Positions 1-50,919 of a stretch of 64,000 nt of DNA are shown here, in pieces. The DNA lies in assembly GCA_008632985.1 (NCBI GenBank), contig QPGO01000190.1:62001-126000 (forward strand), given 5' to 3'. Under the pieces are notes generated by a model. The model made no database searches. It saw only the letters and a program-made list of their open reading frames with translations, and was not told where the DNA came from. Numbering within the stretch: position 1 is the first letter of the stretch; every line of letters starts with the position of its first letter. The translations under genes were made by a program, and so were the position numbers. The DNA comes from Psammoneis japonica. Its lineage: Eukaryota.

Positions 1-727
1 GTGTGCACCATGGGCTGTGCAGAGAAAAAACATGGTTTGAAGGGCTGCGGGGCCTCAGAATGTGGCAAGAAGGGCAAAGGCCAGATGCCAACTGTCAGGT
101 GAGCACCACATGTTTGAAGAGTGTGCTGGATGTTCTTGGAGGATGCATCTTGCTTCTTCTGTCATTTGAGGTTTAGATTTTTGATTGATTGTGGCTGACC
201 CTGACATGTGGATTTGTGCTGCAACACAACCACAGCAGACATGGTCACGAGCACCTTGAAATGCTGCTGGCATGTGTTGACTGTCAAACAACTCAATGAA
301 GTCATGAAGGTCAAACCAGGCAGAGCCAAAGAACTGATGTGTCGTCTGGGATCAGACGTTGAGAAACTTGAAACCAAGGCCAAGCATTCTGCAGCAGAGT
401 CAGCCCCAAACAGGAACAAACACAAGAGTGTGACAAACCATCATGTGGTTTGAGAAGCTGTTGCAGTGGGTGTCATGAAAGGAAGATGGTGAAACTTGGC
501 GGACATTTTGACAAAATTGGAAACAAATCATGGACATTTTCTCTGTTGTTCAGTTTCAAGTTGGACTCTTGTGCTGTTTTGTCGTCCGAAAAACAGCCAC
601 CCGCCCGTGCGTCGTGCGTCTGCACGTGTTCACAGCACGGATGCTTTCCTGACGTCATCCTCATTTTTCTGCTCGGCTTGCTCACATCTCACATTTTTTT
701 GGTTGGCGCTCCTGGCGTCCCGTTCAC

Positions 728-1100
728 ATGAGGCGCCTTCTCACGTTTCTTGTTGTGCTGATCGTGACCTGCACAGTTCACTCCTTTTGTCCGAGTGACA
801 ATGGAGACCCACGAATTGCTTTCACAAAGTCGCGGCTTGAAGCAATTCCGGATGGAACCACCGCTGCCCTAATCGTTTCCGAGGCTTTGGAAGCCTCCCG
901 GACGTCCTTTTTCATTTGTTTTTTTGGTGCTTCCGGTGCTGCTGTCATTGCCAGAAGCGTGTGCAAAAGTGTGGTGGAGATTCAAGAGCTGAAAGATGTC
1001 GGACCGACTCTGGGAGGATGAGAGACGCAGCATGGTCGGGCGCTCTTGGCGCTCCTGCAAGAATTGGTGACACACTGTTTTGATCCGGGAGCATTGCAAG
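728..1100 (+). pseudogene. Degenerate fragment of a secretory/plastid-targeted membrane protein
   Basis: MRRLLTFLVVLIVTCTVHSF resembles a signal peptide and is followed by a hydrophobic segment (SFFICFFGASGAAVIA). The frame ends early at 1021. Confidence 0.35.
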
Positions 1101-2049
1101 GTGTGTGCATGCACCCCCTGGTGGATGCTCATGTGTGTGCATTGCATGTCTTGTGGAAGAGCTGTTCTTCTGACGCTTCCCATTTTCCCTCTTCTTTGTT
1201 TTAAGCAGTTGTTCAAGGCGGCGTGGAAGAAAACAGAGACACTCTTGTAAAAGGAATGATGAACCATTTGTTTGCCGGATCGGAACGTGTTGGAAGTTGG
1301 AATGGCGAGCATGCTGCATGTTGCGCGTGAAAGTGGAGGAATTGCACACGTGTTAATCTTGCCAACTGCTCTTTTCTCTCTCACAAAGATTGAGCCGAGG
1401 AACACATCATTTGGGGCAAAACTTTCTATGTGGGACAAACGTCATGTAAATGGAGTTTTGGAATTTGAAAATGCTGTTCCTGTTGACTTTGAATTGCTGC
1501 TGTGGAACTCATTTCCATTTCTGTTTTTGTAACCAAAAATTAGCGCGTGGCTCCTGATTGCTTGTTGGTGCACGAAAAGCATGCAGACGCCTTGCTCAAG
1601 GAACTCCAGTCCACCAGGCGGTGGAACGGCACGTTTGTGGCTTAAAGAGCCGCATTGCACTGGCACATGCGCATCTCAACTCACTCCCTGTTTATCATGG
1701 CAGTCTTTGTGGCCCTGAAAGTGGTGAAGAACAGTCAAGCTTGCACACAACAAGCAGCTGTGGAGATCAATGTCTTTGGGTGCTGAGTCAAGACAAGGAT
1801 TTCTTGGCCATTAACGTCAAAGCGAAAACCGCAAGATGTGCACCTGCAATCGTGCAGTCCGCATCAGAATCACCTTTGCTTGGTGTTTGAATTGTTGGGG
1901 ATGAACACATGAGAGGTTTTGAATCAGCGGCAGTTCAGAGGGTTGCCCTTGACAAAGGTTCGGCCGCTGCTCATGAAAACAACGGACGGCAGCGTGAAGG
2001 AATTGTGTTGGCGATCAATTGTTCGACCGAGAAGGATTTTGATTCAAGC

Positions 2050-2326
2050 AATGTCAAGTGATTGCTTTCGGTTCGGCTTGCTGTGAAGGACACACGGCTC
2101 ACACCTACATTCGATCTCGGTTTTACCGCAGCCCAGAAGTTCTTCCACTCAAGGGCACCCTGCGATTCCGCTTTTGACATGTGGTCCTTGGGACGCATGG
2201 CGGCAGAACTGTTCCTCGGATTGTCCATTGCCTCACGGTTATGAACACGATCAGGTGAGGCGAATTTGTGAAACAATTGAACCCATTCCAGACATTGCGC
2301 ATGCTTGGCGAAAGGTGCGTGTCATT
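2050..2326 (+). pseudogene. DYRK/YAK1-family protein kinase fragment (subdomains VII-IX), frameshifted
   Basis: Manual translation gives IAFGSACCEGHTAHTYIRSRFYRSPEVL, then PCDSAFDMWSLGRMAAELFLGL. This matches the DYRK consensus IDFGSAC-x-TYIQSRFYRSPEV..PYD.AIDMWSLGC..AELFLG. Confidence 0.85.
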
Positions 2327-3929
2327 CTTTTTATTTGATGCTTTCTGTTGAACGGATGCATGTGCCAATTTATTGTTGCACGCTGCTCGTCGTTGTTCAG
2401 CACTAAATTTGTCCAAGCACTTTGCAAACTCTGTTTCCAAGTCAGAAACTACTTCAACTCCAATGCAGCCACAAACCGGCACAGACAGCGACAAGAAGCC
2501 ATCATGTTCGCCTCCACCCAAACAATTGTGGCGCATCAAGACACAGCAAGAACATGTGCGACCCTCTTTTCCGTCAAGAGTTTTCCAATTGCCATTCTTT
2601 TTGTCGTCATGGGTTGTGGGTAGTCTGGCACGATTTTGCTTTAAAATGCGGCGCCCGTGTTCAACCAAACCCCTCATTGCTGAGCACGACCTTGGATGAA
2701 CACATCTTCCACAACAGCAGTCGCGGCTTCTGTTTCAGATGGATCTTCGCTCGCGTCGGAAAAGCTCTTGACAAGGGCGTCCTGAAGTGGTTTGGGCAAG
2801 TTCCGGTTGCCGCGAACGCAAAGCATGCCGTTGGCACGCTCACGCAACAATGACGGGCATCATCGGCAATGGCAACCAAGTCCTGCACGTGTGTCTTGCC
2901 GTTCTGAGGCACAGCCTGTGTCGTCCACAGCATCAGCAAAAGGCGCCAATGGACAGACGTCGGCAAAGTGTCGAGTGAGGTGTGCAGCATCCCCGATCCG
3001 ACTCAAGCAACACCTTCAAGGACGCGTCCTCCTCGGCACCAAATGATTTGTAACTGGCCGCGAGCTTCTTGGGATGCTTTTTTTCCTTTGTCGGGTCCTC
3101 AACGATTGTTGACATTCTGATGGAGACCGCCCTTAAGATTGTCGACCAAGCCTGAAACGGGCCTGGTGGATTCGTGCGGTGCATGAGATGCTCAATGCTG
3201 ATGGTCGCAACCTGTGTGGCAATCTTTGGACAAAATGGACGCTCTCAACCAATGACCTGGCACTCAATGACAGTCTTAATTACCTCACTTGCACTGTCAG
3301 CGGATGATTGCAAGCAGACGATGTGAAATCGAGTTTTCAAAAGCGCGAAAGAGATGTTCTGATTACAGTGCGTCATCTAATTTTTGTTTTGTTTTCATGA
3401 TCTTGATCTGCAGGCCGATGCTCTACAGCGCGCGCCAACTGATCCCTCTCGAGCCCCAGTCCCAGTCCCACCCCATGCCTGCCATGCTAAACCCAACAAT
3501 CCGTGAGCTTCTACCTTGCACGCAAAAAGCCCGTCCAATGTTTGTTTTCGTTTTCTCATTCTATTCCGCCAGTCCTGCAATGGTTTTCGACTTGAACATT
3601 GGAGCAAGTGTTGCTGCTGTTCAACATTAGCTTTCAGAGGCAATCTAGATCTTGCATTCTCTTCGACCGGTTTACAAAACCAGTTCCGAAACGGCGGCCA
3701 ACTCACATGTGTCCTCTTGACAATGCGTGCCTCAATGCGAGATCTGGACAGCCTCTTCCAACTTTGCTGCTGCAGTTTAAACTTGAGCACCAAGATGCAA
3801 GTGAGTGCACACCACAAGCTGACATCTGAAACAATTTCTGCCCAACACGTCTTCACGACAATGCAGGCCTGAACAAAAAATAAGATGTACAACCACAGAC
3901 GATCTTCTCCACCCGCAACAGCAAAAAAC

Positions 3930-5180
3930 TCAGCCTCGTCGCACTCCCTGCAACTCGGGAGCCGGATGTTCCTCCAGGTGCTTGTCAATCGTCTGCCTCT
4001 CGCTCCCATCCATACATTTAATGTCGTGATGCGCCACGAGATCATCATCAAAGTAAACCCTGAGAATCTTGGCCAACACACGAGTGTTGTTGCGGCAGCA
4101 ATGCACGTCTTGGCCCTTCTCGTACTTGGACGTCGGTTTTTTGGGGGCGGGAGATAGATTCTTTTCTTCTGTCTGTCGCTCTCTGCCGTTGGAGAAGAGG
4201 ACAGTGTAGCACGGAGTTTTGTCGTCAAGGTGAATGCCAATGATCTTGGCAGAAGCGACGTCGTTGGCATTGCTGTTTGTGCACTTGACGTTCTCGCCGA
4301 CTTTGCACTGGGGCTTTGGAGGGCTCGGCTTGTGAGGCGATGCTTCGATGTCGTCTTTTTCTGATGTTGGTGTTTTTGGGATGGGCGATAGATTCTTTTC
4401 AACCGTCTGCCTCTCTCTGTCATTAGAGAAGAGGACAGTGTAGTGTGGAGTTTTGTCGTCGCGGTGAACACTGATGATCTTGGCAGAAGCGACGTCGTTG
4501 GCATTGCTGTTCGTGTACAAAACTCTCTCACCGACTCTGTGCTGGTGCTTTGGAGGGCTCGGCTTGACAGGTGAAGCTTGGACGTTGTCTTTTTCTGGTT
4601 TGACGTTGTAGCGGCACTTTGGAAGGCTCGGCTTGGGGGATGAAGCTTTGACGTTGTCTTTTTCTTTAAAATCGACGGAGGGTGGGGGGTTGTAGTTTGA
4701 AGACGGCTCGTGAGCCACTCCACTGTTGGAAGCAGTGCCGTTGGCAGAGCTGAACGCAAGAAATGGAATGTCAAAGAAAGAAGGTGACGTTAGAAGCAAG
4801 CGTCATGACAATGGGCAGCACAACAAGAGCAACAAAAACTTGCGATGCAAATGGCTCATTGACGTCGTAACGATGCATCTTGCGTTGCGCCTCCACAAAG
4901 TGGCTGCGACGAACGTGGGGAGGCTGGTTAAATTCAGAACAATTCCACCTTGTCTGCTTGGGCAATGCCGTAGCAAGGATCATATGGAGCCAGAGGAGAA
5001 ATGCAACCACAAAGGTTCGGACGACGATCCAGACGTCGATGTTCCTCAACAAGCAACACAAGACGAAGCAGAGCACCGCGCACACTGGGAACTCTTTAGG
5101 ATCCCTGCGCAGGCAAGAAATGGCTCGGCCACAGTCACCAATGAGAAACAAAGCGTTCAAGAAGAGGAAAGCATACAACA
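3930..5180 (-). pseudogene. Partly mutated gene with three tandem SH3/Tudor-like repeats and a probable hydrophobic N-terminal exon
   Basis: ORF 3930..4799 has 3 copies of (Y)xVGExVxY...AKIxxVHxDD..P(Y)YTV.F..GRERQT.E..L, with several expected Tyr seen as His/Cys. The fold assignment is inference. Confidence 0.6.
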
Positions 5181-5642
5181 TGGTGACATTGTTGATGTGA
5201 CACTTTACTTTCTTGCCAGAACTGCGATTGTGAGACGAAGAAAGTGCGTGGGAAAGTGCGTGCTTGCGTGTTTCAGATTTTCGCGTGTGGGGAATTGTGT
5301 CCGCGAAGTGGCAAGTTGGTTTTGACACAATTTAAACCGGTGCTGGGTTTGATCCAAGCAATCATCTTGAACCCAAACTCAGAATGCCGCTACAATCTTC
5401 ATCGTCATGGCCACGGCGTGTTTTCGTTTCTGCTTGTTTGCTCCTGACGACTTCGCCAAAAGTCTGTGTGAGGCAATAAATCTGTGTCGTGCTTTCCGTT
5501 GACACGCGCATGACAGTTAGTTTTGTTCATTGTGGGGCTGTTGAACGACATGTTTTTTGTGATGTTGATCGCTGTTTCGCGCGCACCAGTGGCGGCCAAC
5601 CACACCAACACACACAACACCATGGGCAACACTTTTGCAGTG

Positions 5643-6082
5643 TGCATGCAGACAAAAGGTTATTTTGTCACGCCCTTTGTGACATTTAAAGGCTGCAACA
5701 CGTCACCGTGATGCATCAACTCTCATTGGCAGCTGTGTGTTGCACTCCTCCCCATGTGTCGCACGTCCATGCGGCTCTTTGCTGACGTGTGCTGACACTG
5801 CACGGTTTTGGCGGAACAGTGTGGGTACGTGCGAAGGAACATGCAGAACTGCACAGAGTTTTACGCGTTCGACAGTGATCAACGTTGCTGCAGACAACTC
5901 CCACTCAGGGTTTCGAACCCCTGGCCTCCTGCCCAATGGTTGCGATGAACCACTCCGCTGTGAATTCACAACGCAGCATGCATGCAGACAAAAGGTCATT
6001 TTGTCACGCCCTTTGTGACGTTTAAAGGCTGCAACACGTCGCCGTGATGCATTGACTCTTGTTGGTGGCTGCATGTTGCACT
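5643..6082. repeat. Pair of ~104-bp direct repeats (5643-5746 and 5979-6082)
   Basis: Ungapped alignment by eye shows 7 differing sites, all at pyrimidine-purine dinucleotides. Confidence 0.9.
5897..5968 (-). other. tRNA-like sequence (pseudo-tRNA or SINE head) with Pol III A and B boxes
   Basis: Minus strand reads CAGCGGAGTGGTTCATCGC (A box/D arm) ... CAGGGGTTCGAAACCCTG (B box/T arm). Anticodon arm and acceptor stem are poor. Confidence 0.6.
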
Positions 6083-6299
6083 TTGCTGTTTTGCGGCCTG
6101 GAATCTCTCCCTTGGCTAAACCACCTGACACCCTTGGTTTGCTGTTGCCAGGGGATTGCTGGAAATGACCGTGTTTGGATTTTTCTCAGATGGCCTGCAT
6201 CCTGCAAGTGGCTCGTGAAACACAAGTTCCGCGCTCTTTGTCCAGACAGCGACACCAGGAACTCGCGCACCAGATGCATTGGTTTCGAGCATGCAACAG

Positions 6300-7640
6300 C
6301 TCCAGAACCATCCCGGTCACATGGAGGTCGGCTTCCAGTCAAAAGAATGTTCAAGTCTCCAGATCTGGGGATCTTTCTGTGTGGTTCCACAATCTCCATG
6401 GGACCAGCTGCTTGTGCTGCGGCGGACCCCGTCACTTGCTTTGACGGCATCTCCCATTGCGAGCATGCTGCCAATGCAAAGATTTGTGGGTGCTGCGTGT
6501 TCCATTGCCATTGACCCGGCAACAGGGTCTCGTGTTTCACCACTGTGCACCACCAGTTGCTCAACTTTGTGGAACAAAAAGACCCAGAAACCCAAAATGT
6601 CATGTTTGAAGCTGTTTGGACAGACATCATTCGAGATGGAACATGGCGCAGTTTCACCCTGTGTGTTTCCTGCGATGGAACAACCAACATGCCTCCACCT
6701 CTGCCAAAGGTCCAGGTGGATTGCAGCCACCTGAACGGGGCACTGCGCGGCCTTGGCTTTGCCCTTTCCGCCATCATGATTCTTCTTTCTGTTGCACTTG
6801 GGGTCTGGACCACCTGCCACAGAATGGGCAGAGTCGTCAAGGCGTCACAGTCCATTTTCTTGCTTTTCACATGCGGCGGTGCTGCATGACACAACAGCCA
6901 TCTGTGTTTTGCCACATAAAGTGAAGACAGGGCTCATGCAATGTTTCGGGGTTGCGCAATCTTGTGTGTGTCGCTGAGGTCGGCCATTGTTCCTTTGAGT
7001 TTTGACAACAAAATTGCGGGCAAAGCTGGTTGTGACCTTGCGTGTCAAAGCACACCTTGGCCATTCATCCTTGGTTTTGCTCTTGCCTTTTCTGCGTCAT
7101 TCAGCATGACATGGCGGACAAACAAAATGTTTCACAAGCCTGGTGGCACCGTTGGTTGCTCTCTCTTGCTTGTTGATGCAGCGATGCTTGCAATTTGGAC
7201 GGGGACAGTTCCCTTGGCATGGGAGCGCGAGATGCTCCCAGCGGACGTGTTTGGGAAGACAGTGGAAACAGGAGGAATTTGCAAGTCCGACGCGCTTGCA
7301 GGGCACGTGTCTGTGCTGGTTGTTGCCACATGGGGGTTGGTGGTGGCTTCGTTTCAGGCATGCTGAGCAAGGGATGTCACTGTTGAGTTTGCTGAGAGCA
7401 CGCACACAGGTTGGAGATGCACAATGCTCGAGGCAGGAAATCAAGAAGTGTGTCGGAGTGGCGGTGATGGCTCGCATGCACAGAACGAGATTCACACTAG
7501 AGAAGGAGGCTCCAGATGTGTGCAGTGTCCGCACATTTTTAACATCACTGTGGTCAGATGCCCCAGCGCATGCCAAAATGCCAATGAATGACTGCGCTTC
7601 ATTGTGACTGCGTTTCATCATTCACCCATGCAGATGATGG
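6300..7640 (+). pseudogene. Class C (GABA-B-like) GPCR, 7TM region, disrupted
   Basis: GLGFALSAIMILLSVALGVWT..HRMGRVVKASQSIFL, PWPFILGFALAFSASFSMTWRTNKMF, PLAWERE and FQAC*ARDVTVEFAES match 7tm_3 motifs. Several stops and frameshifts. Confidence 0.85.
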
Positions 7641-8164
7641 CAGAGAGCTTCGAAAATTGTCAGCAAAACAGAAACGCATCAAAGGCATGAGAAAATCTGC
7701 AGTGGTTGCAGGATGAACAACTGGTCAAGGCACGGCACAAAGGGATCCCCACCGCTGCACTGGCATGCCACATGTCTCAATTGGAAGGACTGGCCATCCC
7801 AGATGCACCGGGATGCGTTGACCTTTTGCTTTTCGTCCCATTTGACCAAGCTCCTCTCATTTCCCATCAAGGTCTGGAAATGCGGTCATGCCCACTGCAA
7901 TTTGTTGGAGACACACGTCCACTCTCGGGGTTGTAAAGCCCAAGAGAAACCCAACCATTGCACAGATGGTTCAGTGGTCGGAATCAACCAAACCCCATGA
8001 GCAGACAGGGAACAGAGAGAAGGCGCTCAAGCTCCATGTCAGTGCTGTTGGGGTGGAGACAATTTGTGTGCTTGATGGGATTAGAGGCAAAGTTTGGGCA
8101 TGGTCAAGCCCAATGCATCCACTCTGGTTCTAATGCACGTCAGCTTCTGCATTGCACATCCTGT

Positions 8165-8460
8165 TTGGGTGATCATCAAGAGATGCTCTTGGAAACTGGA
8201 TGCATTGTGTGCCTCACACAACTTCTTCAAACATCTTGCTGCCAGCTGCTGCACCCTGCTCTTGCTCAAGCCCATGGCATCAGCACACTCAGCAATTGAC
8301 AGGGTGAATCCATTGGACAAACAGCACTGCAATCTCATTGACTGCACTTCACGAGCATTCAGGTTTTGCACCAAAGCTGTCACAATGTCCGCATGTCTGT
8401 TCCACCATTTCCACATTGGCTGTGAAATTCTTGCCATTGCCCATGATGTGATGGAGGCTC
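8165..8460 (-). pseudogene. Sigma-70 factor region 4 relic (nuclear-encoded plastid sigma factor-like)
   Basis: LNAREVQSMRLQCCLSNGFTLSIAECADAMGLSKSRVQQLAARCLKKL matches the region 4 pattern L..RE..V.RLRYGL..G...S..E....MG.S..RV.Q....L.KL. Confidence 0.75.
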
Positions 8461-10029
8461 TTGACTCTGTGTCACAGTCAAGAAGAAAGTGTCTTCCACC
8501 CAAATGATGTGTGATCTTTTGACAGCCAACCACATTTGGGTTCTTGCCTTCCCCAATCTGTTCTGGGGTGCCACCGCACCACCTTCACTTTGGGCATCTC
8601 CCTCCTTTTGTCCAAAAGAAGTGTCAACAAGGGCTCCAACTTCAGCAGCAATGTCCGCTCCAGCCATGGCAGATTGTCTGGGTTCACCTGCAAAGGTTTG
8701 TCAGATTCAATTGCCAGCAAAACTCCCTCTGGCAGTTGCAGCAGGGTTGTGACTTTTGTTGAACACCAGGGAAAAGAATGCAGCTGAGAGTGAGAGTGCT
8801 GCTCTTGTCAAGCTTGCAAGGTGCATCATGAACAGCCACAGCACATTTGGGCACAGCTGGCCAAGACACGAGAGCAAATTTTCATCTGGGCCTCAAAGCA
8901 CATGGCCTTGTGGGCTGGCAGCAGGTGAGGTTGACCAGACTTTGGGTCAACCCAGCATGCAGTGGCAGCTGTGCAGGTTGATGCATGTTTCCAAGGTGTT
9001 TGCACTCTTTGGCACATGACAAAATTCTTGGTGCCAGCAGCAGCACCACAAGCACCAGGGCACAAGCCCAGATTGTTGGCAGCCATGCCATCAGCAGCTC
9101 CAGCCAATGAGATGGAGTGGGTGGGTGGGTGTTCATCAAGAATTGTTCACCTGGACAATTGTGCAGCACCAGCTGGTTTGGACAACAACAATCTTGTGCC
9201 ACTGTGCAGCAGAAAACAATGAATTGCACAGCACATGCTGTGTCTGCAGGCTGGCCCACAGGTGCAGCTGATCATGCAGAAGCACCTTGTGAGCCTGCTG
9301 TCATCCACAGGAGTTTTGCACAGGCAAATCATGACCCAGCTGACTGCCCCACAATTGGCACATCTCATTTCATGAAGGAGTGGCACAGAAGCCATGCATC
9401 ACCAAATGCTTGAGCTTGCACAGAACAGTCTCACAATTTTCACAACACTGGAGTTTCTGTCACCACTCAATTGCCCAGACCCTGCTCCTGTGCTTGGGTG
9501 CAAATGTTCATTCCTCAGGTGGAGATGTCTTTCAAGCCTTGTTCCCAAACCTCAGCTGGGGGGCTGCAGAAGCTTCTTGCTTTCCCACAGGCTTCACACC
9601 GTGTCACACCCAACACTTCCAAGTCCTTGGACTTGGCCCTTGGCTTGGCAGCTTGGCATCAGCTTCAGCAGGTTGCTCAATGCCAAATGTTTTCTTCATG
9701 GCATGAACCTCATTGTCAGACTTTGTTTTGTCACAGCAGCAGCAGCCTTGTGCTTGTGTGCTGCACTTTGCTTCTTGTTCACACAGCTTTGCAAGCTTTG
9801 TCTTGCTCTTTTCCATTGAGAGTGTGCCGTGACACTTTCTGCACTTGCTGCTGTTTTTCCACATGAAACATGCAGCCTCGCTGTTTTGTGCAATTCAACA
9901 TTGCTTCTCTCAGCAGTTTGCACAAGAGCTTTGTTGTGCTGCCTCCACTGCCACTTGCAAGAACCACACCCATGCACACAGATGGCTGCCACAGACAGCG
10001 TGAAACAAATTTCAGTCTCCCACACCCCA

Positions 10030-10250
10030 GAACAACAGATCAGAGAAGGGAAGAACTTGGGTGTGGCTGGGCATCAGGACATTGCACATTGCTTGGTCTT
10101 TGATGTCAAAATGGACCTCATGAGGAAAGCAAAATTTGTGGCTGGCACACACACACAACAAAAGCTCTGGTCAGAGTTGCATGTTCAAGTGTTGCATCAA
10201 GAGACGGCGTTTGCACTTTTTTGCTTTTGGCAGCATTGGATGGTTTTGTC
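10030..10250 (+). mobile_element. Ty1/copia (CoDi-like) reverse transcriptase fragment
   Basis: GHQDIAHCLVFDVKMDLMRKAKFVAG then LLAALDG, matching copia RT GYQ.I..H.VFDVK.D..RKAR.VAGGH...LLAALN. Confidence 0.85.
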
Positions 10251-11899
10251 TGGAAAATGTTGTGGCTCTTGTTCAGAACTTGTTTTGCTCTTGTCAAGAA
10301 TCCTGTGTTCTTAACAAGTGCTCGTCAATTGCGCAAAATCAATTTTGACAATTTTTTAACATTCCAAGCAGGCTTAACACTCAATGAAAATGACTCTAAT
10401 TCTTCATTCAATCTTGACAAGATTGTGACCACAATGATTTTAAAATTGTTCAGCTCACGTTCGCAATTAATGCAACCTTCTAAGCAGGAAACAACCATCA
10501 ATGAAGCTTCTTGACAAGGGTGCAACCACGACTGCTTTGCAACATTGTTCATTTCTGACAACTGCAACATTCATTTGTTGCATTGAGATGCTCGTGCATT
10601 GACTGCATGTTTCTTGCAAGGTGATTGTGCCAGCTGTGTTTCATCATTTCTGCAGTGAACGTGTTCTTGCTTCCTGTTTCCTGCTCTTCCCTCCTTGGCT
10701 TTCTCCTGTCTCCTGCCTGCTCTCCCATGCCGCAGTGATGGCATGATGCTTTGCTCATTTTGCAGACCCTTGCATCCGCTCTTGCTTGCCAAGCACAATT
10801 CTGTCATTTGTTCCATGTTGTGACCTTGTCTCTTTTGCTTTTCATGCCAGATTGCCAAAGCTTTGCCTGCAAAGAAGAGAAAAGAGCTTGCAACAGATCA
10901 GAGCACTGTGCGTGTGCTTTGTTTTTGAATGAGCTGCTTGTCTTGACAAAAACAGTGCTTCTGCTCACCTTTGCATGCAACCATGTCTCTTTCAGGCTTT
11001 GCACCAGTTTGCCAAAGCATTGCCTGCAAAGAAGAGAAAAGAGCACACAACAGATGAGAGCATTGTGCTTGCATTGTTTTGAACATGCTTTGCTCACCTT
11101 TGTGTGGCCCCTGCAGGGCCATCTTCCCTTCCGTCTCCCTTTGCATGTCATCAACGTCATGTCTGAGTTGAAAAATTGGCAAAAGCACCAGTTGTTTGCA
11201 TTGTTGCCCAAGCTCTGTGCACTCACCGACTCAGTTCCTGCCTCTCTCTTTCCTTGTGTTCCGCATTGTCCTCCTCCCCCTGATGCTCTTCCATTGCCTT
11301 CCCTTGCTGATGATGTCGTTGTCACGATGTTTGATGAGCCTTGTGTTTTGTGTCTTGTGAGGAAATGATGGTTCGTGTTTTTGCAGCAATGTCAAGCCTG
11401 TCTGCCTGGTGATTCCTGTCAGCATCATTTTTTAAGTGACAGTTTTGTTTTAAAATTCCATGCTCACATCGGCTTTGAAGGTTTGAATGATTTAAAATGA
11501 CTTGACGATGATTCATCCATTCACACAGGTTTTGCATGTTTGTTGGCAGTTGGTCAATTTCTCATCTTTCATTGTGCTAATGTGTTCTTGTCAAGATGCA
11601 AATTTTCACAGTCTTGCTGCACAGCTTTCATCATGTCAATGTGTTCTTGTTGATGCAAATTTTCACAGTCTTTCTGTGCAGGTTGAGCCAGCAAATCTCA
11701 AGCTCAATCTCAGCCACAAGAGCTCAGCAGCAGGAGCCCTCAGAGAAACCAAGACTCTGCTGCTGGAGCTGCTGCAGCACTGGCTGATGGTCCAAACCCG
11801 GCAACTGCCACCACTGCTGCTGCCTTCACAATGACAAAGCTGCGCGCCAATGTGGGCTTGCACCACTCTCCAGCCATTGTTGCAACCAAAAATCTTGAA

Positions 11900-13760
11900 C
11901 TTCTCATGCGCTGGCACAAAGTTCCCATGACTGTTGTTGCATGCCCTGGCACCCAATGGAGTCTCCTCCCACAGCCATCCCAAGACAACTGGCCACTTGC
12001 GCTGTCACACAGATGGCTCAATGGTCTCTGCACAGGTGTGTTGGCTGGGCCAAAGAAGGCCCCAGTCATGTCAGAAAGAAAAGGGGCCACATTGTTGACA
12101 CAAGACAAGCCTTTGCTCCCCAACCAAGGTTGTTGTTGGCTCTCCTGGGACACAATGGAATCACCCAAGGGGCCAGCAAAAGACGTCTGGGCACTTGTGC
12201 TGTCCACAAAAAGCTCCCTTGCCTTTGCAGGTGGGGTGGTGGCTCGGTCACCAAAGCAAGCCGATCACATCAGAAAGAAAAGGGGCTGCATTGGCCCAAG
12301 ACAAGGCTTTTCCTTCCCAACCACCGTGTGTTTTTTGCCTCCTCCTGGACCCAACAAAGTCTCTTGTGCCCACCCTCAGACAACTGAGTGCTTGCACTGT
12401 CACACAGATGGCTCCCTTGTCTTTCTTGCAGGTTGAGCCACCAAAAGCCATCCTGAGACAACGGAGTGCTTGCACTGTCACACAGATGGCTCCCTTGTCT
12501 TTCTTGCAGGTTGGCTGGTGCCTCCACACCTTGTGCAGCTGGGCATTTTCTTGTGTGGAGGAATCATGCAAGGGGCTGCTGCTGCTGCCCATGACATGGC
12601 TTGCAGCTTCCAAAATCAAGAGTGCAAAGATGCCACAGTTGGGTCAAGAACCCACTCAAAAAATGCAGGCTGAGTGCATTCTTTGGGGTCCATGTCATGA
12701 CGCAGGTGGCAGCAACTCAAACGAATGTGCATTGATGGTGATGATGATGATCTGGCTTGGCATTTGGCAAATGTTTGCTGGAACATGGGGGCACCACCAC
12801 TGCATGCTCCACTTCAGTTTCTTGACCAGCCTTGACCTGTGCACCGTTCATGCACCGTGCACCCCTCGGCAAGCCTGTTGCTCCAGTTGGAGACACCAAG
12901 ACATGCAACCAAACTCACAACTGGACAAGGCTTTTCCTTCACAACCACTGTTGTTGTTGCCTCCTTGAGGACCCAATGGAGTCTCTTGCAAATGTCTCAA
13001 GACAACATGGAGTGCTTGCACTGTCACAAGGACAGTTCCCATGTCTTTCTTGCAGCAGGAAGGTCCTTGGCTTGGCCAAACCCAGCCATGCCAGAGAGAC
13101 AAGGTGCTGCGCCAATGCAAGACAAGGCCTTTGCTTCCCAACCATTGTTGTTGTTGCATTCTCTGGGACCCAATCAAGTCTTCCAAGGCCACCCCAAAAT
13201 GACAGAGCACTTGCGCTGTTGCACAGATGGTTTTCTTGTTTTTGCAGGTGGCGCGGCTGGGCCAAGAAACCCAGTCATGTCAGAGAGACAAAGGGCTGCA
13301 TGGAAACAAGACAAAGCCTTTGCTCCCCAACCATTGTTGTTGTTGCATCCTCTGCAATCCACTGGAGTCCTCCAGTGCCATCCCAAGAATGCTGCGAACC
13401 TCCTTTGCCACATCTGTGGGTGCGCTGCTTTCACACCTTGTGCAGCTGGGCATTTTCTTGTGTGAAGGAATCATGCAAGGGGCTGCTGCTGCTGCTGCCC
13501 ATGGCTTGCAGCTTCCCAAATCAAGATTGCAAAGACACCACACTTGGGTCAAGAAACCACTCAACAAATGCAGGCTGAGTGCATTTGGGGTGCATGTCAT
13601 GCAGGCAGCAACTCAAACCAATGTGCGTTGATGGTGATGATGATGTAGAGCACCACCACATGATCCATTTTAGTTTCTCAAGTGGCACTGGCCTGTGCAT
13701 CATGGTGCACCATCCCCCCCAGCAAGTTTGTTGCTCCAACTGGAGACACCAGCAAGACAT
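11900..13760. repeat. Degenerate ~190-bp tandem repeat array with a ~0.9-kb higher-order duplication
   Basis: CAAGACAA(G)GC..TT...CCCAACCA..GTTGTTG recurs at ~12101, 12297, 12922, 13118 and 13307. Segment 12525-12905 resembles 13432-13765. Confidence 0.8.
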
Positions 13761-15674
13761 GTCATCAAACTTGCCACCAGAGTTAACCCCTTGGAACTGA
13801 GGATGTGTGGCTGATGAACTCTGGCCATTGTCTTCATTTGCAGTGGAAGAAGATGAGACATTCTTCCCAGTCTCTGTCATCTGGCAATGGCTTTCCAAGC
13901 AGCAGTGGTGTTGCTTGCTTCATGAGATGCAAAGACCATGCCTTGGCAAGTTTAAATCTGAGCAACTCTTCCTGCTCTTCCCAGTGCTTCTCTTCCTGCA
14001 GCGTTGGGTGGGGATGTGCATGCCAAAGTCATTGTCAGGGTTCAGGCCAAAATGGAGAAAACAGAGCACTGGAAATGCCTTTGAAAAAGTGTTTGGAGAG
14101 TAAAAAAAATGTCAAATGCAAGAAGAAGCAGCATCAATCCATTGTTGCAGCAATTGAGCCAACCATCGGCATCAGATGGTGTCAGCATGCATGCGGCACA
14201 AGCCCTGTTTGGCACCTTCAACATTCCACAGGTGGAGAATGGGGCATTTCCACTGACATGTGTCAATGTCGACAATTTGGTGGAAAACACACCACCCCAC
14301 CACAGTCCCAAGCAGCAGTTCCAGCAGCAGCAGGTGCAGTGCCAAGTGCCTTTCTCACATGCACCAAGCCTTCTCCTTGCTTCCAAGAGCACATCTTTCC
14401 CATTTGTCCAATCTGTTGGACACCAGTCAACTCACAAAACAGAACGGCAACACCAACCAAATTCTTCTGTTGTCTGAAGCTGTCACTTCCTTTTTTTCAT
14501 TGGCGGCATTGTGCATCACACTCCTTTGGACGGTGTCTCTCTGAATTGATGACAGCATTGAAACCACTTGACGAACGTCTTGCACTTCAATTTGTGGCAT
14601 CCAGAAGCTTCTTTGGCTGCTTCAACTGTCCTTGTCATTTCATTGCATTGCCTCTCACTCTTGCACCCACAGCTCCAAGCTTTGTGGCCTTGTTGATTGC
14701 CTTGCATTGGATCTTACAGTCATCACTGATGCCACTGTCTCAGGTGCGCTCCCCACATTGGTGACATCCGAGAGAGTTTGCTTGACCAACACATTCAATG
14801 TCAAGACAAGCAGCCAACCAGTCTTGGATGAGGCCACCCACCTTCTCAGACCAGCCACGGATCCATTGGGAAAAGCCAGGCAGCATGGTTGGCCAGTGAT
14901 CATGGTCGCTGAATGTGCTCAAATGAGTGGCCAGTCATTTAAAGACCAAGTGCGCACTGCTGCTTGATTTGTCAGTGATCTGTTTGTTCTTGGCATTAAA
15001 AAGAACATGTTGTCCTTGCTGTGGCCATTGGGTTTCGGTGGTCACGGCAGCAGCTTTGTCACAAAAGAGCTGCACTTGATTTGATGTGTTGTTGACATTG
15101 TGGCGAGTTTCACAACAATTGTGTGAGATTGTTTTGAGGCCATCAGGAAGGCTCTTCATCAAGAGGAGTCAAGTGCTTTGCTTGGTTGCTTTGGGCCCAC
15201 CCTTGCAGATGACACATGCCAGTGATGGGCTTTTGCATTCCAAGAGAGCACCCATGATGCACTGCAGTTTTGCTGCACATTCCAATCAACCTTGGTTCGA
15301 TGGCATGCATGCCCCATGTCTTTCACATGCAGGATCGCTGCAGACACCAATTTTCTTTTCGTGTCACGAGTCGGTCGCGATTGGCGGGACTCGCGGGCAT
15401 CGTGACTAAAAATTTCTTGCATTCCAAGTTCCCAAACAGAGAACGATGAGCGAAAGTCGATCGGGAATGTTGAAGGGCACTTAGCCTACGAATCGCAAAC
15501 AGAAAAGGTATAAGGTAGGAGTATTTCCCAGTTCCCTTCGCGTCGACGTGATTGTCACTCTGCTGTCTGCTACAGTAAAGAGTTTTCTGTTGGTTGGGGC
15601 TGCCAGCTGCCACCTCGATGTATGCTCAGATCCCGGATCCCGGAAATGATCCGTCTCTGCTTCTCCGTGGTATA

Positions 15675-16300
15675 GGTTGACAACTACGACGCCATTCGAA
15701 AAGAGTTCAGAGATCTCGCTGGAGCAAAAAATAACACCCCGAATCATTGGCCATCTGTAGGATCTGGATATCATCGAGACGGAGCAGGGCAACACGATTC
15801 CACAGTTGTGGATAGAGCCTGGAGAGAAATCATCCTTTTCGGAAGCGGTGCGGCAAACACGAGAAACGTAGCTCCAATAACGTGTGACTTGATTCTAAAA
15901 CACATCCCTGAGGCTGATGGTTTAGCTCAAGCCGGGGGCGGGGAAGTCTTATTTTCTGTACTTGCCCCGAAAACAAGAATACGGCCACACTGCCAGACTA
16001 CAAACTTGTGGTTGACCGCTCACCTGGGCCTGTCCATCCCCGTGAGCGAGGAGACATGTGCCCTTCGAGTAGCTGACAAGTGGTCAATTGGAAAGAAGGA
16101 CGAGTCCTGGTGTTTGACGACTCGTTTGAACACGAGGTTTTTCACGATACTGATTCTAGACGTGCCGTGTTGCCCCTGCACTTTTGGCATCCAGACCTGC
16201 CTCGGGAAGAGCGACAAGATGCGCTTTTACAGATGCTGCAGCACAAGCAGGATGATATTCACTGTCGCTGTAATCCGCCAATTCCGAGTTTTGTTGCCTC
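15675..16300 (+). pseudogene. Aspartyl/asparaginyl beta-hydroxylase-domain protein, frameshifted near 16082
   Basis: FSVLAPKTRIRPHCQTTNLWLTAHLGL, then in another frame WKEGRVLVFDDSFEHEV..FWHPDL. There is an in-frame stop just upstream. Confidence 0.8.
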
Positions 16301-16519
16301 TGCCCAACAAGTTAGACCTCGTGGATTAGAACATTCGTCATGTCCACGATGCCGGAGAACCACAAACGCAACCGCAGCTCCCGCCGCCGATACAATCCAA
16401 ACTCCAAACCATCTTTTTTCACACATCCATTGCCACTGTTCTCGAGGTCGGTCGCAATCATCTTTCCCGATGGGATGATCAAAAAGTCTTTCTTCTGCAA
16501 AAGTATCAACCGCTACTGA

Positions 16520-20554: not shown

Positions 20555-21702
20555 TCTCATGTTTCCCAGGAAAACCCAAGCTTCTCCAGTTTTTCAATGC
20601 GTTCTCGGGGTCAAGCTGACCTTTTCTCCTTTGATTCGTTTTCTATATAGCTGCCGCTGTTTTCGGATCCAGTTCGCAAGCGATGGGTCTTTGGGAACAC
20701 TTCGACCACTGACCGGACCATTTATTCTTACAAATTCCGATAATCTCAGACATTTCTGCATCCAAGCGGCATCATAGGCATTCCAGATGAAATCAATCTT
20801 GTTCAACAACTCAATGCGTTCTTTTGACAACGAGACTGTTTTGCTTCCACCACCTTTTTCATTTGCTTTGAGAAGCCTAAAATTGAAGTCGTTGGTCATC
20901 CACCCAACGTCCGAGTGCAGGATTAGAATCGTGTGCTTTTGGAACCGAACTGAGATGCATGCACGAGACAATGGTGACAACAGTCAGCTCGACCCAACCC
21001 TCAAATGCGGACACCAACAACCAAAACAAATGCGAGTCTGGCAAACATTGCTCGCCAATTGCCGTGGTTGTCTCGACATCTGCAGAGCTCGTTGCAGCAT
21101 TCCATCCAAGACGCTTCGCGTGCATCCCATGTGAATTCGAGCTTGTTGAGTTGTTCAAGCCTTTCATCTGTCAAGGAGCATGGCTCACCCGCCATTCGTT
21201 TCTGGCAGTTTCGTCTCTGAAGGTGAACAAACTTTCCAAGAGGAGATGCACTTACATTCGGTGCAAGCGCACGTCCATGTTCTTTGTAAAACTGTTCGAG
21301 TTCTCGGCAATGCTTGTCCCATGATTGTTCGTGCATGTTCCACACAAAACCCACCAAGTCTAGCTGGTCAATCCGGTCTTCCGACATTGAGCCTGATCCC
21401 GATGGTGTTTGAGAGATTCGACACTGCGTCCTTAGGCTGTCCACCCAACGACCCAATTTAGGATGAGTTTTCGGCACATGGGCGTGTCCGTTTTCTCTCA
21501 CAAACTCTCGCAAGGCGTCCATGCAGCTGTTCCATCGAGACTTACGCAAAGTTTCCCGTGATGTCTTTTCTTCCGCTTGACTGGTCGACAGAAATCGATC
21601 AAAACTGTGGAACTGCGTGAAACCAAGGATGTTGCTCCCTCTCAACCTCACTGAGGATCTCTGAAACGAGGCAACGGATGCCGAAAGTGCCATCATGGTC
21701 AT
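20555..21702 (-). pseudogene. Helicase-associated (HA) repeat protein with about 4 repeats, partly mutated
   Basis: Repeated W......L..F...NGH..VP.....LG.WV...R......RI..L..+GF.W. Probable intron 20950-21055 and frameshifts near 20880 and 20605. The N-terminus ends in RFLST, like a mitochondrial presequence. Confidence 0.85.
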
Positions 21703-22869
21703 AGGGGCCTTCCAATATCACTAATAGGGCACGCTGTGGGTATCAGAAAAGGATCAAAGCGCAATCATTGAATATCCTCAGAGCTAGATATATATTTTAT
21801 GAAGAATTTTGAAATGACCGCGCGCGCGATCGAACTCCCTCCGAGAGCGAGCGAGTGTCCATGTGTGTCGCACGTCATCCATGCTGCACGTGAAAAATCA
21901 GAAAAATCAAAATGAAAATGGCAGATGGCAGCAGAGCACAGCCTGTGAGTAGAGAGGTGCAGTGACCAAGACGACACGCTCATCTGAGAGTCGAGGGTTC
22001 TTACACTGCTGCATCATGTGAATGGAAGCAGGGTCCACATTCTCATCTCGAAGCAACAGGAACTCAGGTGGGGGTGGCATGCAGGAGTGCGCCTCATGCC
22101 TCGTCATGACGGCCTTCTGAAGTGACAGAATGTGTCTGACCTCAGCCCTTGTTTTGAGGATGAAATGTGAACAAAAGGAAGAGTCCAAGTTTGTTGGTCC
22201 TCTGAGTCAGAAGCAAAGTGTGCTCTTTGGCACACGGAATTTTGAGATGATCAGACGATCACACTGATCTTCGGCTGCGTGTGTGATGTTCGACGAGTTC
22301 AATTTTGCGCGCTGATGGTCAACTGCCATTTCTCAATGACTTTGGAAGTCGTTGACCATGCTGTGATGACTGCTGTTGTGTGTTGCAAGCTCTGTTGAGT
22401 TGTCTCAGTCAATCTCTCAAGAGCTTTCATCATGCAAATGAAAGCATGTTTTCAAAGCTGCTGGTGTGGTTGCATTTGGAGTGGGTCATTGTTTGAGTTG
22501 GAATTTGTGAAGGTGCACAAGACTCCATGATGTGTGTCTTTGGGGAAACTGATGTGATGCATTGTTCCATGCAAGAATGGAAGAGCTTCATGCAAACCAA
22601 TGAGGACACTCCATGCTCAATGACGCAATGATGGGAAATGAAGAATCAACTGCAATCGCTCCCCTGAGAAGAATGAGTCACCCTCAAATCGTGGTCTCAA
22701 CACTCTCAACAACCAATCCTCTCATGTTGCTCTGAGTGACACTGCCATGACTGATCAGAGCTCCATCCTGTTGCTCTCACTGGCAAATTCTGGTGCGCAG
22801 CTTTTGTGCTGATGGATGACTCTGCTGATGAGGCATTTCCCCTCCACCTGATGACGACACTCACTTCAA

Positions 22870-33541: not shown

Positions 33542-36426
33542 TACACCCTGGCTACGCAGTGTCCCGTTTGTCCACAGGTGTCCAAAAAAATTCAAAGCAA
33601 AACGATGGAGAGTATAGCTCGAGGACCGAACCGGACCTCGCCTACTAGTAGGGCCCTACCTACCGGCGTACGGTACCGTACCGTACCTACCCGCACGACG
33701 ACGACCCCTCCAGTTGCTGTTGCTGCGGAGCTTATTGTTGTTGCTGTTTCTTTCTCTCTACTCTAGAGATCGGTACTCTACCCGACAAAACTGCAAAGTG
33801 TGAGATGAAAGGAATACATTAGACGTGCATTTTGGTTGAAGCCTCGAGATGGATCATCGCTCAATCAAACAGCCAAGGTCAGAGGCGGCCACGACAGTTG
33901 GTGAGCAGGTATTTTCCAACTTCCAACGTGCTTGAATGTGCTTACACATCGCCTCACTTTCTCTTTCATCCTAAAAATATCTGTTGCTTCAGTCTATCGA
34001 ACCGGAAGAAAAGGGACCTAAGCCTACCAAGCCCACAATAACAAAAAAGAAGCAGAAAAAGTCGAAATAATCGGCAAAGAAAAACAAGAACAGCAACGAA
34101 GAGAAAACGTCCTTGTCTTCAAGAGTATCGTAAGTATCGAGAGGGAATATCACGCCTTGCCTAAAACTTTAATCTTGGTTGTGCTGATGCTTCATCTCCT
34201 CTCTGCACCTTGTGTTGGTATTCAGCATGGCAACAGCCGACGGGCAAGCAATGGCTCAGGTGCTGAGTACGTTTAATCGCATGGAACGGGTTCGTTTTGA
34301 ACCTCTCATGACATCTGATTCTCCAATCCCTCACAAAATTCAACGCGCCGCAAATGCTCAACAACTTTTCTCGAAAGACACAACCCGCACGATACATAAT
34401 ACAGCAAAACATCAATTTGAATCATGGCACCGCAATATTGCAGCAAGAGAGTCCCTTTGACGAGGTGGAAATCAGCAATGGAATATTTATGGAGTCAGGA
34501 ACGGATAATGATGTCTTTGCAAACAAGTCTACTACTCTGCACCAGCATCTGAAAACAACGAGACTACATCCTTTTGGAGACACCGCAAGTTTCACATCAT
34601 CGCCGTCGTGGCGATTGTGATTGGAGGTTTCGTCATTCTAAGGGGTAGTGCCAATCCCAATGCTCTCTTTGTTCCTGTTGATCCACCCGGCAAGGAGAAA
34701 GCGGATCGTTGGGATGCCACGTTGGGATTGCGTTTGCGTGTCGTGAATGCATGCAGTGACGGCGAATGGACGGCTCTGTTTGATGCTTCCCTCAGTGATC
34801 GGAATTCAGATCCATCGCTGCAATTGACGCCGATTCGATCGACACATGATCCGGTTTGTCAACCGGAAATGAAACGACTCAAGGTTTTCAATGGCAATTA
34901 TGGAAATACGGATTGGCAAGGACTCAATGCGATTTTGTTGAGACGAGAAGTGATTGTGTGAAGTACGGTACGACTCAATTATGATCAATCCATGGATAGT
35001 GAGCGAAAGTATTATAATGTGAGTGTGATTAATTTGCTGAGCTTGCTTGGTTGCTTGTGTATCGTGGCTTTTTGGGTGTATATTTTGGTGCTTGTTTGGC
35101 GAAGTGTTGGTATTCTTTCGTCTCTCAAAACGTTCACCTCACCCGTCTACTCTTACTCGATAATCCATCAATTGTAATTTTGGTTTTAGGAGCCACGAAT
35201 AATTGGGTCAAGGATTTGGTTTGCCACATTCCGACGAAAATCATTTCAACTTTGACCGAGAGGATTTCATGGATTACACAACCCGGCCCCGTTCCATCAA
35301 ACTGCCGGGACAGCACAATTTTTATCTCCTCAAAAAGATCCATGGTTCGCCCGACGAGCCACTTGTGTTTGGTTCCGCTGCCGATGTGAGTTGTACTACT
35401 TTGGAAACTTCCGTCCCAATCGAAATGGCAATACTCAATGAATGGACACCCTTGTGGACGAGTCCGTGAACAATAGCACCACCAGCACTATTGTACAAGA
35501 ATCATCCGAAGAAGAAGAGTCGGATGAAGAATCAAGTGACGAGGAGCCTGTTCCAATGGATATTCAACAAGCGGCACTTGGACAATATCTCTGTGCAAGG
35601 AGGATCATTGTACCGCGTTTTTAGGACGAGATTATCGAGTCGAATTCAACAAGTTACGATTCTAACTAACGCTCGCCTACTATAGTAGAGAGTAGAGAGC
35701 TCAATCAACGACGACTCCCTCCAAGTTGAGTGCGAGTTGCTGTTGCTGGTAGTTGGAGCGGAGGTCGTTGCTACTCTTGCTGCGTTGCTTGGTTGTTGGT
35801 GCTGTTTCTGGCTAGAGATACGGTACTCTACCCTACAACAACTGTGAAGTGTGAGTTGAAAGGAACACAATAAACGAGTATTTTGTGTGAAGCCTCACGA
35901 TGGATCATCGCTCAATCAAACGGCCAAGGTCAGCCACGACAGTTGGTAAGCAGGTATTTTCCAACTTCCAACGTTGTTGAATGTTCTTCGTCAAAAGGAA
36001 TGTCAAAGATCTGTACACGTCGCCTCACTTTCTCTTACATCCTTAATATCTGTCGCTTCAATCTATAGAATACCCCCCGCTTCAACAGCTGTTTCGACGC
36101 CTCCTTCTGCTGTTCCTCACGTCGCTAAACTCTGTAATTTCTTACTTATTAGAAAACTATGAACTACCAGATAAGTAACTAACAGTGTTTAGGTATAGCC
36201 GAATGGGGAACACCATAATGAAATGCTATACGATTCTTACTGTCTCCGGTACCTACAGCACGTAGCTTTCTCTACCGGTAGAGAGCATTGTTCTTCTAAG
36301 TAATCGCGTGACTAGGACATTATACTTTGTCACATAAGTACACCCTGGCTACGCAGCGTCCCGTTTGTCCACACGTGTCCAAAAAAATTCAAAACAAAAC
36401 GATGGAGAATAGCTCGATCGAGGACC
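33542..36426. repeat. Two duplicated non-coding modules flanking the 34.2-35.6 kb gene relic
   Basis: 33542-33626 resembles 36339-36426 (TACACCCTGGCTACGCAG...), and 33763-33998 resembles 35811-36066. Confidence 0.85.
34228..35624 (+). pseudogene. Hypothetical protein, multiply frameshifted
   Basis: Chain of protein-like ORF pieces (34212, 34354, 34608, 35203, 35442) with an acidic tail. No family recognised. Confidence 0.45.
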
Positions 36427-48417: not shown

Positions 48418-49569
48418 GGGGGAGCGGCGGTGGAAGCGAGCGAGAAGTGTGGGGGCGCAAAACTAACGGTCATCTCGGTATGTACTGACGACTCGCCGTT
48501 GATTTCTACGAGCACCTTAATTTGAAGGACTGAGTGAGTCATCCAATTTTTCCAATTTTCTGGCTGCCCCTCTTCCTTCACAGCCTGCCTGACCCCCTTC
48601 TGTCTCCCTCCAATCTCCTCACCGGTGCCAGGCCGGCCTGGAGCAAGCTGCCCCCCCCCCGAGCTTGGGCCTCCCACAGGTCCTCACCTTTTGCTCCGTG
48701 CCTCCCTTTCTCATCATCTCTCTTCCTTCACATCTCNGTGCCGCTGCTGTTGACGATGTCGTTTGTCGAAAGTAATGTGTTCAACGCCGATGTTTCGGTG
48801 TAGTATTGCTTTAATGTGCCATTACTAACAATATGTGCAAAAACATCGCCATCATATTGTGCAGGAGACGGGAAATAACAACTCCACTTTGGGCATCCCA
48901 GCAGCTCCGAAGGCAGCCGCCAACAATAACCTGGAAGCCCTCAAAAGGGATATTAACACCGGTATTCGAGTCTTTGTCAATCATGTCCAAGAAAATAATC
49001 GACATATAACATTTCAGGAGGGAAAGAAGTGGTTCCTAGTCTCAACACTGGTGAAAAAGCTCGAGACGAGTGCTCTAACGCCTCTCATCTTCTCGATCAA
49101 GTCGGCGTTGCGGAAGACGGTATGATGCTGGAATATGAACAGAAATGGATGAATATCCTTTACTTCCCTTTCTCTGAGTTGGAAACGAGGCCCATTGGCC
49201 AATGGAAATTTGTTACAGTGAAGCTTTGAGCCACCAAGACTCTGGGCATGGTTACATCTCCATCGCGCCACACTGTCGTGACTTCCTCAAAGGAGATCCC
49301 ATTAATCCATCAAGGCCACAGCTGTGTCAGAAACAAGAGGCAGGAAGGCATCCAGCCGACTCCTTATAGATGTAAATAATGCATCTTCTATTTCTCTGTT
49401 GAAGACTCCTGCAGACAAGGAAACAGCAAAACCGTCAGCAGAGAAAGACCGCCAGTGAGTCATTCCCATTGCTTTCTTTGTGACTAATTAGCTGTAACAT
49501 TTGCTATAAACAACATTTCAATTATCTATGCAATGAAAACTATGCCATGCTGTGTTTACAATTTCCTTA

Positions 49570-50305: not shown

Positions 50306-50307
50306 CC

Positions 50308-50665: not shown

Positions 50666-50919
50666 GGTGTTTTTCTCGGATGAATGAGTTTCATTCGCAC
50701 GAGTCAAGTCACATTTTTGAGGTTATGGGCTGAACCACACTGTGTCGCCTCGCGCGTAGAAAAAAAGCATCGTGCCCTTCTGTCTCCCTCCAATCTCCTC
50801 ACCGGTGCCAGGCCGGCCTGGAGCAAGCTGCCCCCCCCCCGAGCTTGGGCCTCCCACAGGTCCTCACCTTTTGCTCCGTGCCTCCCTTTCTCATCATCTC
50901 TCTTCCTTCACATCTCTCC

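Follow-up and report, generated by a model that had tools for sequence, protein, structure and literature searches.

We found that an open reading frame of a diatom gene with tandem Tudor-like domains carries His or Cys at codons where its relatives mostly have Tyr, and that it lies in a stretch of DNA depleted in the dinucleotide TpA but not, around the frame itself, in CpG. The best reading of these data, and one that we think is probably correct, is a regional mutation process that converts TpA to CpA or TpG and acts on this copy of the gene. The window referred to below is the whole 64-kb stretch of DNA that was analyzed.

An earlier note on this DNA had described near-identical repeats of a domain in the open frame, P0001. 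Two tandem copies, R1 and R2, are present; a repeat search and TRF both returned them as head-to-tail units of 234 nt each without indels (Table 1). Near-identity was a generous description, however, as the units are 82% identical; the codon alignment contains 28 transitions and 15 transversions among 234 bases (43 differences), and the encoded residue differs in 18 of 77 codons. Since dN/dS is 0.30 with a dS of 0.50, the divergence between the two units appears to be mostly ordinary and to have occurred under constraint, and the duplication appears to be old. The sole Met of P0001 is residue 263 and there is no ATG upstream of the repeats, so the frame would be a relic or else a single exon of some larger gene. 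Open frames are weak evidence in TA-poor DNA, because loss of TA deletes the stop codons TAA and TAG. A second minus-strand frame, at 3395-4789, is open for 464 codons and overlaps the P0001 frame in a different phase, and its openness probably results from this loss of stop codons. The upstream ORF at 4771-5331 showed neither a Pfam match nor likeness to the P0001 homologs. When the locus was compared with the 64-kb window by tblastn and blastn, only its internal copies were found, besides one weak match at 62509-62649 (E 0.15), which we rejected as a further copy because its frame is full of stops.

Table 1 Features of the locus and composition of the window (o/e, observed/expected; positions are those of the window)
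Feature	Position	Strand	Description
Open frame P0001	3930..4799	-	289 codons; Ser/Pro/Lys-rich linkers and three predicted Tudor-like barrel domains
Tandem unit R1 (N-terminal copy)	4363..4596	-	Domain itself at 4377-4550; residues at the conserved aromatic columns: His, Tyr, His, Tyr
Tandem unit R2	4129..4362	-	Domain itself at 4143-4316; residues at the conserved aromatic columns: Cys, Cys, Cys, Tyr
Older third domain R3	3969..4133	-	Aromatic columns read Tyr, Cys, His, His
Partial fourth copy, 64 nt	4602..4665	-	Linker and first domain residues; TAC at 4610-4608, site 1
Site 1 (QH/QC)	R1 4541-4539; R2 4307-4305	-	R1 CAC (His); R2 TGC (Cys); codon alignment
Site 2 (LY/KC)	R1 4517-4515; R2 4283-4281; R3 4098-4100	-	R1 TAC (Tyr, kept); R2 TGC; R3 TGC
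Site 3 (TPH/TPC)	R1 4445-4443; R2 4211-4209; R3 4029-4031	-	R1 CAC (His); R2 TGC (Cys); R3 CAT (His)
Two cross-codon CA-vs-TG pairs in nine bases	R1 4467-4475; R2 4233-4241	-	Ancestor TA or CG
Direct repeat, 110 nt	5637-5746 and 5973-6082		88% identical; 1 kb from the ORF
TA-depleted stretch, CG much less so	1..8000		1-kb windows: TA o/e 0.03-0.30, CG o/e 0.56-0.95
ORF	3930..4799		TA o/e 0.29 (14 seen, 48.6 expected); CG o/e 0.95
Both ORF flanks			TA o/e 0.20; CG o/e 0.87-0.90
Three normal stretches of the window			TA o/e 0.56-0.59; CG o/e 0.93-0.99
Window state: normal (1-kb windows)			TA o/e 0.4-0.8; CG o/e 0.7-1.07
Window state: TA depleted, CG partly or fully kept	1-8, 37-41 and 61-63 kb		TA o/e 0.03-0.30; CG o/e 0.50-1.15
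Window state: both depleted	8-15, 22-32, 51-57 and 63-64 kb		TA o/e 0.00-0.09; CG o/e 0.05-0.32

Judged by its homologs, the ORF is most plausibly a copy of a diatom gene whose family encodes Tudor-like beta-barrel domains in tandem. When 1.84 billion representatives were searched exhaustively without a profile, 42 relatives scored E 0.001 or better, the top one with E 8.3e-18 and 35% identity; ten were looked up, and the three that could be named all came from diatoms (Cylindrotheca closterium, a Bacillariaceae MAG and C. fusiformis). A word-index search with P0001 among proteins of near or greater length gave no match, nor did a sequence search of the PDB. In Pfam, P0001 matched DUF1918 (E 5.8e-7; 29.5 bits, cut-off 24), with a Tudor-knot match below threshold. 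Among 15 homologs, P0008 alone matched DUF1918, at 16.9 bits and under the cut-off; nine had hits with E no higher than 0.01, spread across unrelated families, and the other six had none. No Pfam family captured the repeats consistently across P0001 and these 15 homologs, and the diatom repeats differ in this respect from DUF1918 and Tudor-knot domains, to which their matches are weak and inconsistent.

The repeats are predicted to adopt the Tudor/chromo-barrel fold, a five-stranded SH3-like barrel. The predicted model of P0040, a single-domain homolog, is a five-stranded barrel (pLDDT 85.2), and it is in this barrel that the likeness to the Tudor/chromo-barrel ("royal family") domains lies. 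Its nearest PDB entries were 6hq9_B, the Tudor domain of ERCC6L2 (TM by target 0.78, rmsd 1.9), and 4pll_A, the chromodomain of MRG2 (TM by target 0.80, rmsd 1.7), although the Foldseek E-values of these best matches were weak (0.007-0.011). The Tudor-like domain occurs in varied architectures, since the 1122-aa homolog P0041 carries it at residues 128-183 together with Pfam DUF6570 (E 3.1e-10), and P0016 combines it with ankyrin repeats. For the pyruvate phosphate dikinase (PPDK) gene of the same window, the best named relatives were diatom proteins of 64-67% identity and the best match overall reached 73%; because these values are no higher, the searched collection seems to hold no close sequenced relative of the diatom from which the window derives.

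The codon alignment bore out the three pairs of codons on which the earlier note had rested its case, two of them CAC in one unit and TGC in the other and the third TAC against TGC. As it had also stated, the third repeat keeps TAC at the QH/QC position (4124-4122), within KYEKG. We then compared these codons with the corresponding columns in 80 copies of the domain, each with a domain E of at most 0.001, taken from the 42 relatives. The profile used for this purpose was built from the window's own three repeats, so any bias would favor His and Cys. Nevertheless, family column 4, corresponding to site 1, contained Tyr in 27, Phe in 19 and Ile in 1 of 47 copies; column 12 (site 2) contained Tyr in 62, Phe in 1 and Cys in 1 of 64; column 36 (site 3) contained Tyr in 46, Phe in 33 and Ser in 1 of 80; and column 37, the neighbor of site 3, contained Tyr in 77 and Phe in 3 of 80. 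Neither His nor Arg was present in any of the four columns. Only from Tyr can His and Cys each be reached by a single transition; from Phe, a transversion or two steps would be needed. The proposal that the ancestral codon was TAC is thus supported by the Tyr/Phe columns of the family and by the TAC present at site 1 in both R3 and the partial copy. We take sites 1-3 to have been Tyr ancestrally, a reading that the homologs support even though Phe is common at site 1 (19/47) and site 3 (33/80).

All eight aromatic changes that the family allows us to polarize run from TAC or TAT to CAC, CAT or TGC, that is, from TA to CA or TG, in agreement with the claim that the direction of change is the loss of TA. 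Four of them yielded His and four Cys, so both strands have been affected, as had been proposed, with the reservation that this symmetry is counted over only eight events. TpA is its own reverse complement, and hence either strand of one site can be hit. Several other codons of the repeats deserve mention. R3 has an additional His (CAT, 4103) and an additional Cys (TGC, 4097), at columns that are Tyr in some relatives, and it also contains one change in the reverse direction, His to Tyr (CAC to TAC, 4055-4053), which creates a TA at another column. The codon that lies two places upstream of site 1 is TGC in the partial copy (4616-4614), CAC in R1 (4547-4545) and CCC in R2 (4313-4311); the family does not have Tyr at the column of this Cys/His pair.

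Non-synonymous transitions of TAC can give only His or Cys, and the substitutions could in principle reflect nothing more than a relaxed or dead copy of the gene decaying without regard to sequence context. The age of the duplication (dS 0.50), the predominance of transitions (28/43), the lack of an ATG before the repeats and a TA o/e only slightly lower in the ORF than in the PPDK gene (P 0.05) are all compatible with such decay, but the distribution of the changes is not what it would be expected to produce. Five of the eight aromatic cells of R1 and R2 are changed in one copy only, and hence since the duplication, as compared with one of 32 other conserved cells (P 0.00047). When all three repeats are considered, 8 of the 12 cells at the four aromatic columns hold His or Cys, a state seen in 1 of 271 family cells (P 4.8e-12), while at 16 other columns conserved to at least 75%, 12 of 48 cells are off consensus (P 0.0135). 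Gene-wide relaxation would not be expected to single out Tyr in this way. These comparisons establish the Tyr ancestry, the direction of TA loss and the excess of loss at Tyr codons.

The dinucleotide context of the differences also argues against context-free decay. The alignment of R1 and R2 contains four positions at which CA in one unit faces TG in the other, namely the two His/Cys codons and two pairs across codon borders, whereas placing these 28 transitions and 15 transversions 20,000 times without regard to context gave 0.45 and 0.52 on average (P of four or more, 0.00045 and 0.0012). The two His/Cys pairs taken alone were not significant (P of two or more, 0.07-0.09). A two-copy model with one uniform hit rate per TA did not fit the TA-linked tally of two TA/TA positions, two single hits and four double hits, and was discarded. 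We likewise rejected the idea that strand runs (His-His in R1, Cys-Cys-Cys in R2) point to processivity, as the cross-codon pairs are mixed and the numbers tiny.

A 110-nt direct repeat near the ORF provides a further comparison. Its two copies differ by 13 transitions and no transversions, and 10 of the 13 form five CA-vs-TG pairs, as opposed to a single CA/TG pair among the 31 differences of a control pair in normal DNA (33717-34001 vs 35774-36070). The repeat appears to preserve a very clean footprint of a dinucleotide-targeted process that acted after a local duplication. Together with the low TA and retained CG of the ORF flanks, which context-free decay does not predict, these observations lead us to regard that explanation as unlikely, though it is the best of the alternatives.

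The regional composition of the window is in line with a process directed at TpA. The stretch that contains the ORF is depleted in TA without being depleted in CpG around the ORF, and in the affected stretches of the window a TA o/e of 0.00-0.30 is accompanied by a CA/TG o/e raised to 1.3-2.05. The ORF is the least TA-depleted point of the 1-8 kb stretch and its own depletion is modest: the probability of observing 14 or fewer TAs is 0.05 if the TA o/e of the PPDK gene (0.45) is taken as baseline, and 0.002-0.005 for baselines of 0.55-0.59. Tyr codons account for 7 of these 14 remaining TAs, and the CA/TG o/e of the ORF, 1.19, is not raised. No 1-kb window across the 64 kb is depleted in CG alone, and TA loss therefore looks broader or earlier than CpG loss. 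As some stretches are depleted only in TA and none only in CG, the TpA process may be distinct from methyl-CpG decay. The TA-poor blocks occur in repeated form in the window. Pfam scans of 101 ORFs (9, 30 and 62, some of them overlapping), among them ORFs of the TA-poor blocks, returned no viral or transposon domain.

His and Cys are common metal ligands, and it could be imagined that they were selected, for instance because they created a metal site or reshaped the aromatic pocket in a Tudor-like domain. Such functional recoding would suit units that evolved under constraint, as the dN/dS suggests these did; however, hardly any family cell at the four columns contains His or Cys (1/271), the three repeats carry different combinations of the two residues, and TA sites in the surroundings of the gene that are synonymous or non-coding show the same type of change. 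We therefore judge selection for these residues to be highly improbable.

The locus could be compared with other copies through one DNA run, which may be the window's own sample. It contributed 381 short contigs matching 3300-5400, of which 111 were at least 99% identical to the window, 132 were 95-99% identical and 138 were 90-95% identical. Because of the contigs in the two lower classes, related but different copies must exist in that DNA sample, either as paralogs or as other strains. Among the 40 places listed, out of 79, at which such copies differ from the window, all 40 of them outside 3930-4870, the other copies had TA where the window has CA or TG at five places and the reverse at none, and six places made up three CA/TG swaps. 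The same run bears on whether the substitutions arose by A-to-I editing of RNA that was copied back into DNA, or are assembly or base-calling artefacts at TA. ADAR-type editing prefers a 5' U, and modified DNA can give systematic miscalls in long-read assemblies, which would fit changes at TA. Against these possibilities, the two strands are equally affected (four His, four Cys) and the gene shows no sign of retro-copying, and the 111 contigs of 381 reproduce the window at 99% identity or more, with the proviso that the run may come from the same sample. Either origin thus seems very improbable.

The explanation that fares worst, and that we consider barely credible, is plain CpG decay, in which an ancestral Arg codon CGC, upon deamination of methylated C on one strand or the other, becomes TGC or CAC: it predicts exactly the His and Cys observed, but Arg, whose presence in homologs the earlier note had named as the outcome that would point to CpG decay, was searched for at sites 1, 2 and 3 and found in 0/47, 0/64 and 0/80 copies, respectively, where Tyr stands in 27/47, 62/64 and 46/80 and most of the rest is Phe, so that it is contradicted at three codons; moreover, two further copies in the gene carry TAC at site 1, R1 retains it at site 2, and the CG o/e, 0.95 in the ORF, is 1.01 in R1 plus R2. 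Methyl-CpG deamination resembles the process proposed here in giving the same two products, CAC and TGC, and in following the same strand logic of a self-complementary dinucleotide, and differs from it in that the ancestor here is TAC rather than CGC and local CpG is not depleted. Some traces of CpG decay do exist. Other blocks of the window are strongly CpG-depleted, and R1 and R2 differ by CG versus CA or TG at 12 dinucleotides, as against only two differences of TA versus CA or TG; 8 of these 12 fall at synonymous third positions and are ordinary silent drift. In addition, since the other copies have CG where the window has CA or TG at 7 of the 40 places listed outside 3930-4870, vs 2 in reverse, some CpG decay acts on this copy too.

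Given a regional TpA process, the history of the gene was probably as follows. R1 and R2 would go back to an old internal duplication, after which purifying selection governed most of their divergence. A gene-bearing stretch of about 8 kb would afterwards have been exposed to a process converting TpA to TpG, or to CpA when the other strand was hit, and a conserved TAC would have turned into CAC (His) in one of the units and into TGC (Cys) in its partner. The underlying chemistry may be the deamination of adenine in DNA to inosine, which is read as G. The process might be aimed at particular chromatin or at repeated DNA and spill over this gene, and the gene copy may be decaying rather than functional.

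A comparable process has been described in Bigelowiella natans, in which two integrated viral regions show a mutation rate raised about 1000-fold, with almost only A-to-G and T-to-C changes, all at TpA and giving TpG or CpA according to the strand (Mettrop et al., bioRxiv 10.64898/2026.01.13.699255). According to the available part of this preprint, TpA hypermutation targets the DNA of integrated giant viruses and virophages, windows poor in TpA and rich in CpA+TpG form clusters across the genome, and an ADAT2-like adenine deaminase is proposed, DNA adenine deamination being a hypothesis (10.64898/2026.01.13.699255). The likeness to our case, on what that part contains, consists of A:T-to-G:C transitions at TpA, confined to regions that are TpA-poor and CpA+TpG-rich. 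All eight polarized changes at the aromatic columns are A:T-to-G:C, the one opposite change lying at another column, and the copies of the 110-nt repeat differ by 13 transitions and no transversions. A restriction to TpA is less sharp here, as the bias toward Tyr cells (5/8 vs 1/32) stands beside the 12 CG-linked differences, and the cross-codon pairs may descend from TA or CG. By the thresholds in the available part of the preprint, windows 1-2000 and 5001-15000 pass both, that for TpA and that for CpA+TpG (1.52), whereas the windows of the ORF (3001-5000; TA o/e 0.25 and 0.30, CA/TG o/e 1.42 and 1.27) pass only the former.

There are also clear differences from B. natans as portrayed in that part of the preprint. 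Its mutations were measured directly in mutation-accumulation lines, while ours are deduced from substitutions; it is a chlorarachniophyte with viral inserts, while here a diatom gene of a host family and repeats are concerned, and we saw no foreign origin of the target, the named relatives of the gene being diatom proteins. The near-complete erasure of TA and the strong CpG loss in other blocks of the window are likewise particular to the diatom DNA. Repeat-induced point mutation (RIP), known from Neurospora and other ascomycetes, also produces dinucleotide-context transitions on both strands, is confined to repeated DNA, and can ruin reading frames and reach neighboring genes. Its direction is the opposite one, however, as RIP converts CpA to TpA and leaves a TA-rich product, whereas here TA is removed and CA and TG are gained; the TA and CA/TG values of the affected stretches accordingly do not bear its signature. 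The result listings of a full-text literature search contained no report of a TpA process in diatoms, and the word "diatom" does not occur in the available part of the B. natans preprint (10.64898/2026.01.13.699255).

The tandem copies within one gene, with the 80 outside relatives as outgroup, form a small but clean internal control, and it is this control that fixes the direction of a TA-poor, CA+TG-rich signature as the loss of TA and reveals that both strands are affected. If the process is the same as in B. natans, it would extend, as far as the preprint describes it, to a second, unrelated algal lineage and would not be restricted to viral inserts. A targeted A-to-G mutator of DNA would then be a wider feature of eukaryotes. 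It would also call for care in the annotation of diatom genomes, as TAA and TAG vanish from stretches of this kind, long false ORFs arise there and real proteins lose Tyr. More tentatively still, and with somewhat more doubt than confidence on our part, we suggest that diatoms, far from the one alga in which such a process has been measured, possess a region-targeted TpA-to-TpG/CpA editing of DNA that is separable from methyl-CpG decay, recodes Tyr to His or Cys in host genes that had evolved under constraint, and serves genome defence while being a source of protein change.

Several genes of ordinary appearance lie in parts of the window where TA is at normal levels: helicase-associated (HA) domain repeats at 20597-21717 (-), an Asp/Arg hydroxylase at 15676-16329 (+), PPDK at 44221-46797 (+) and a member of the tubulin-tyrosine-ligase family at 57864-59618 (+). 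A class-C GPCR fragment (Pfam 7tm_3, E 2.6e-8) at 6920-7366 (+) contains no TA dinucleotide and no Tyr, and looks like a host-gene relic inside a TA-poor stretch. Finally, a tandem array with a period of about 177 nt (49578-50313) lies in nearly normal DNA and is flanked by a 142-nt direct repeat whose copies, at 48595-48736 and 50775-50916, are 100% identical. Its first listed pair of copies differs or agrees as TA/TG at 5, TA/CA at 6, TA/TA at 7 and CA/TG at 10 positions, as if the array had been caught part-way through conversion.
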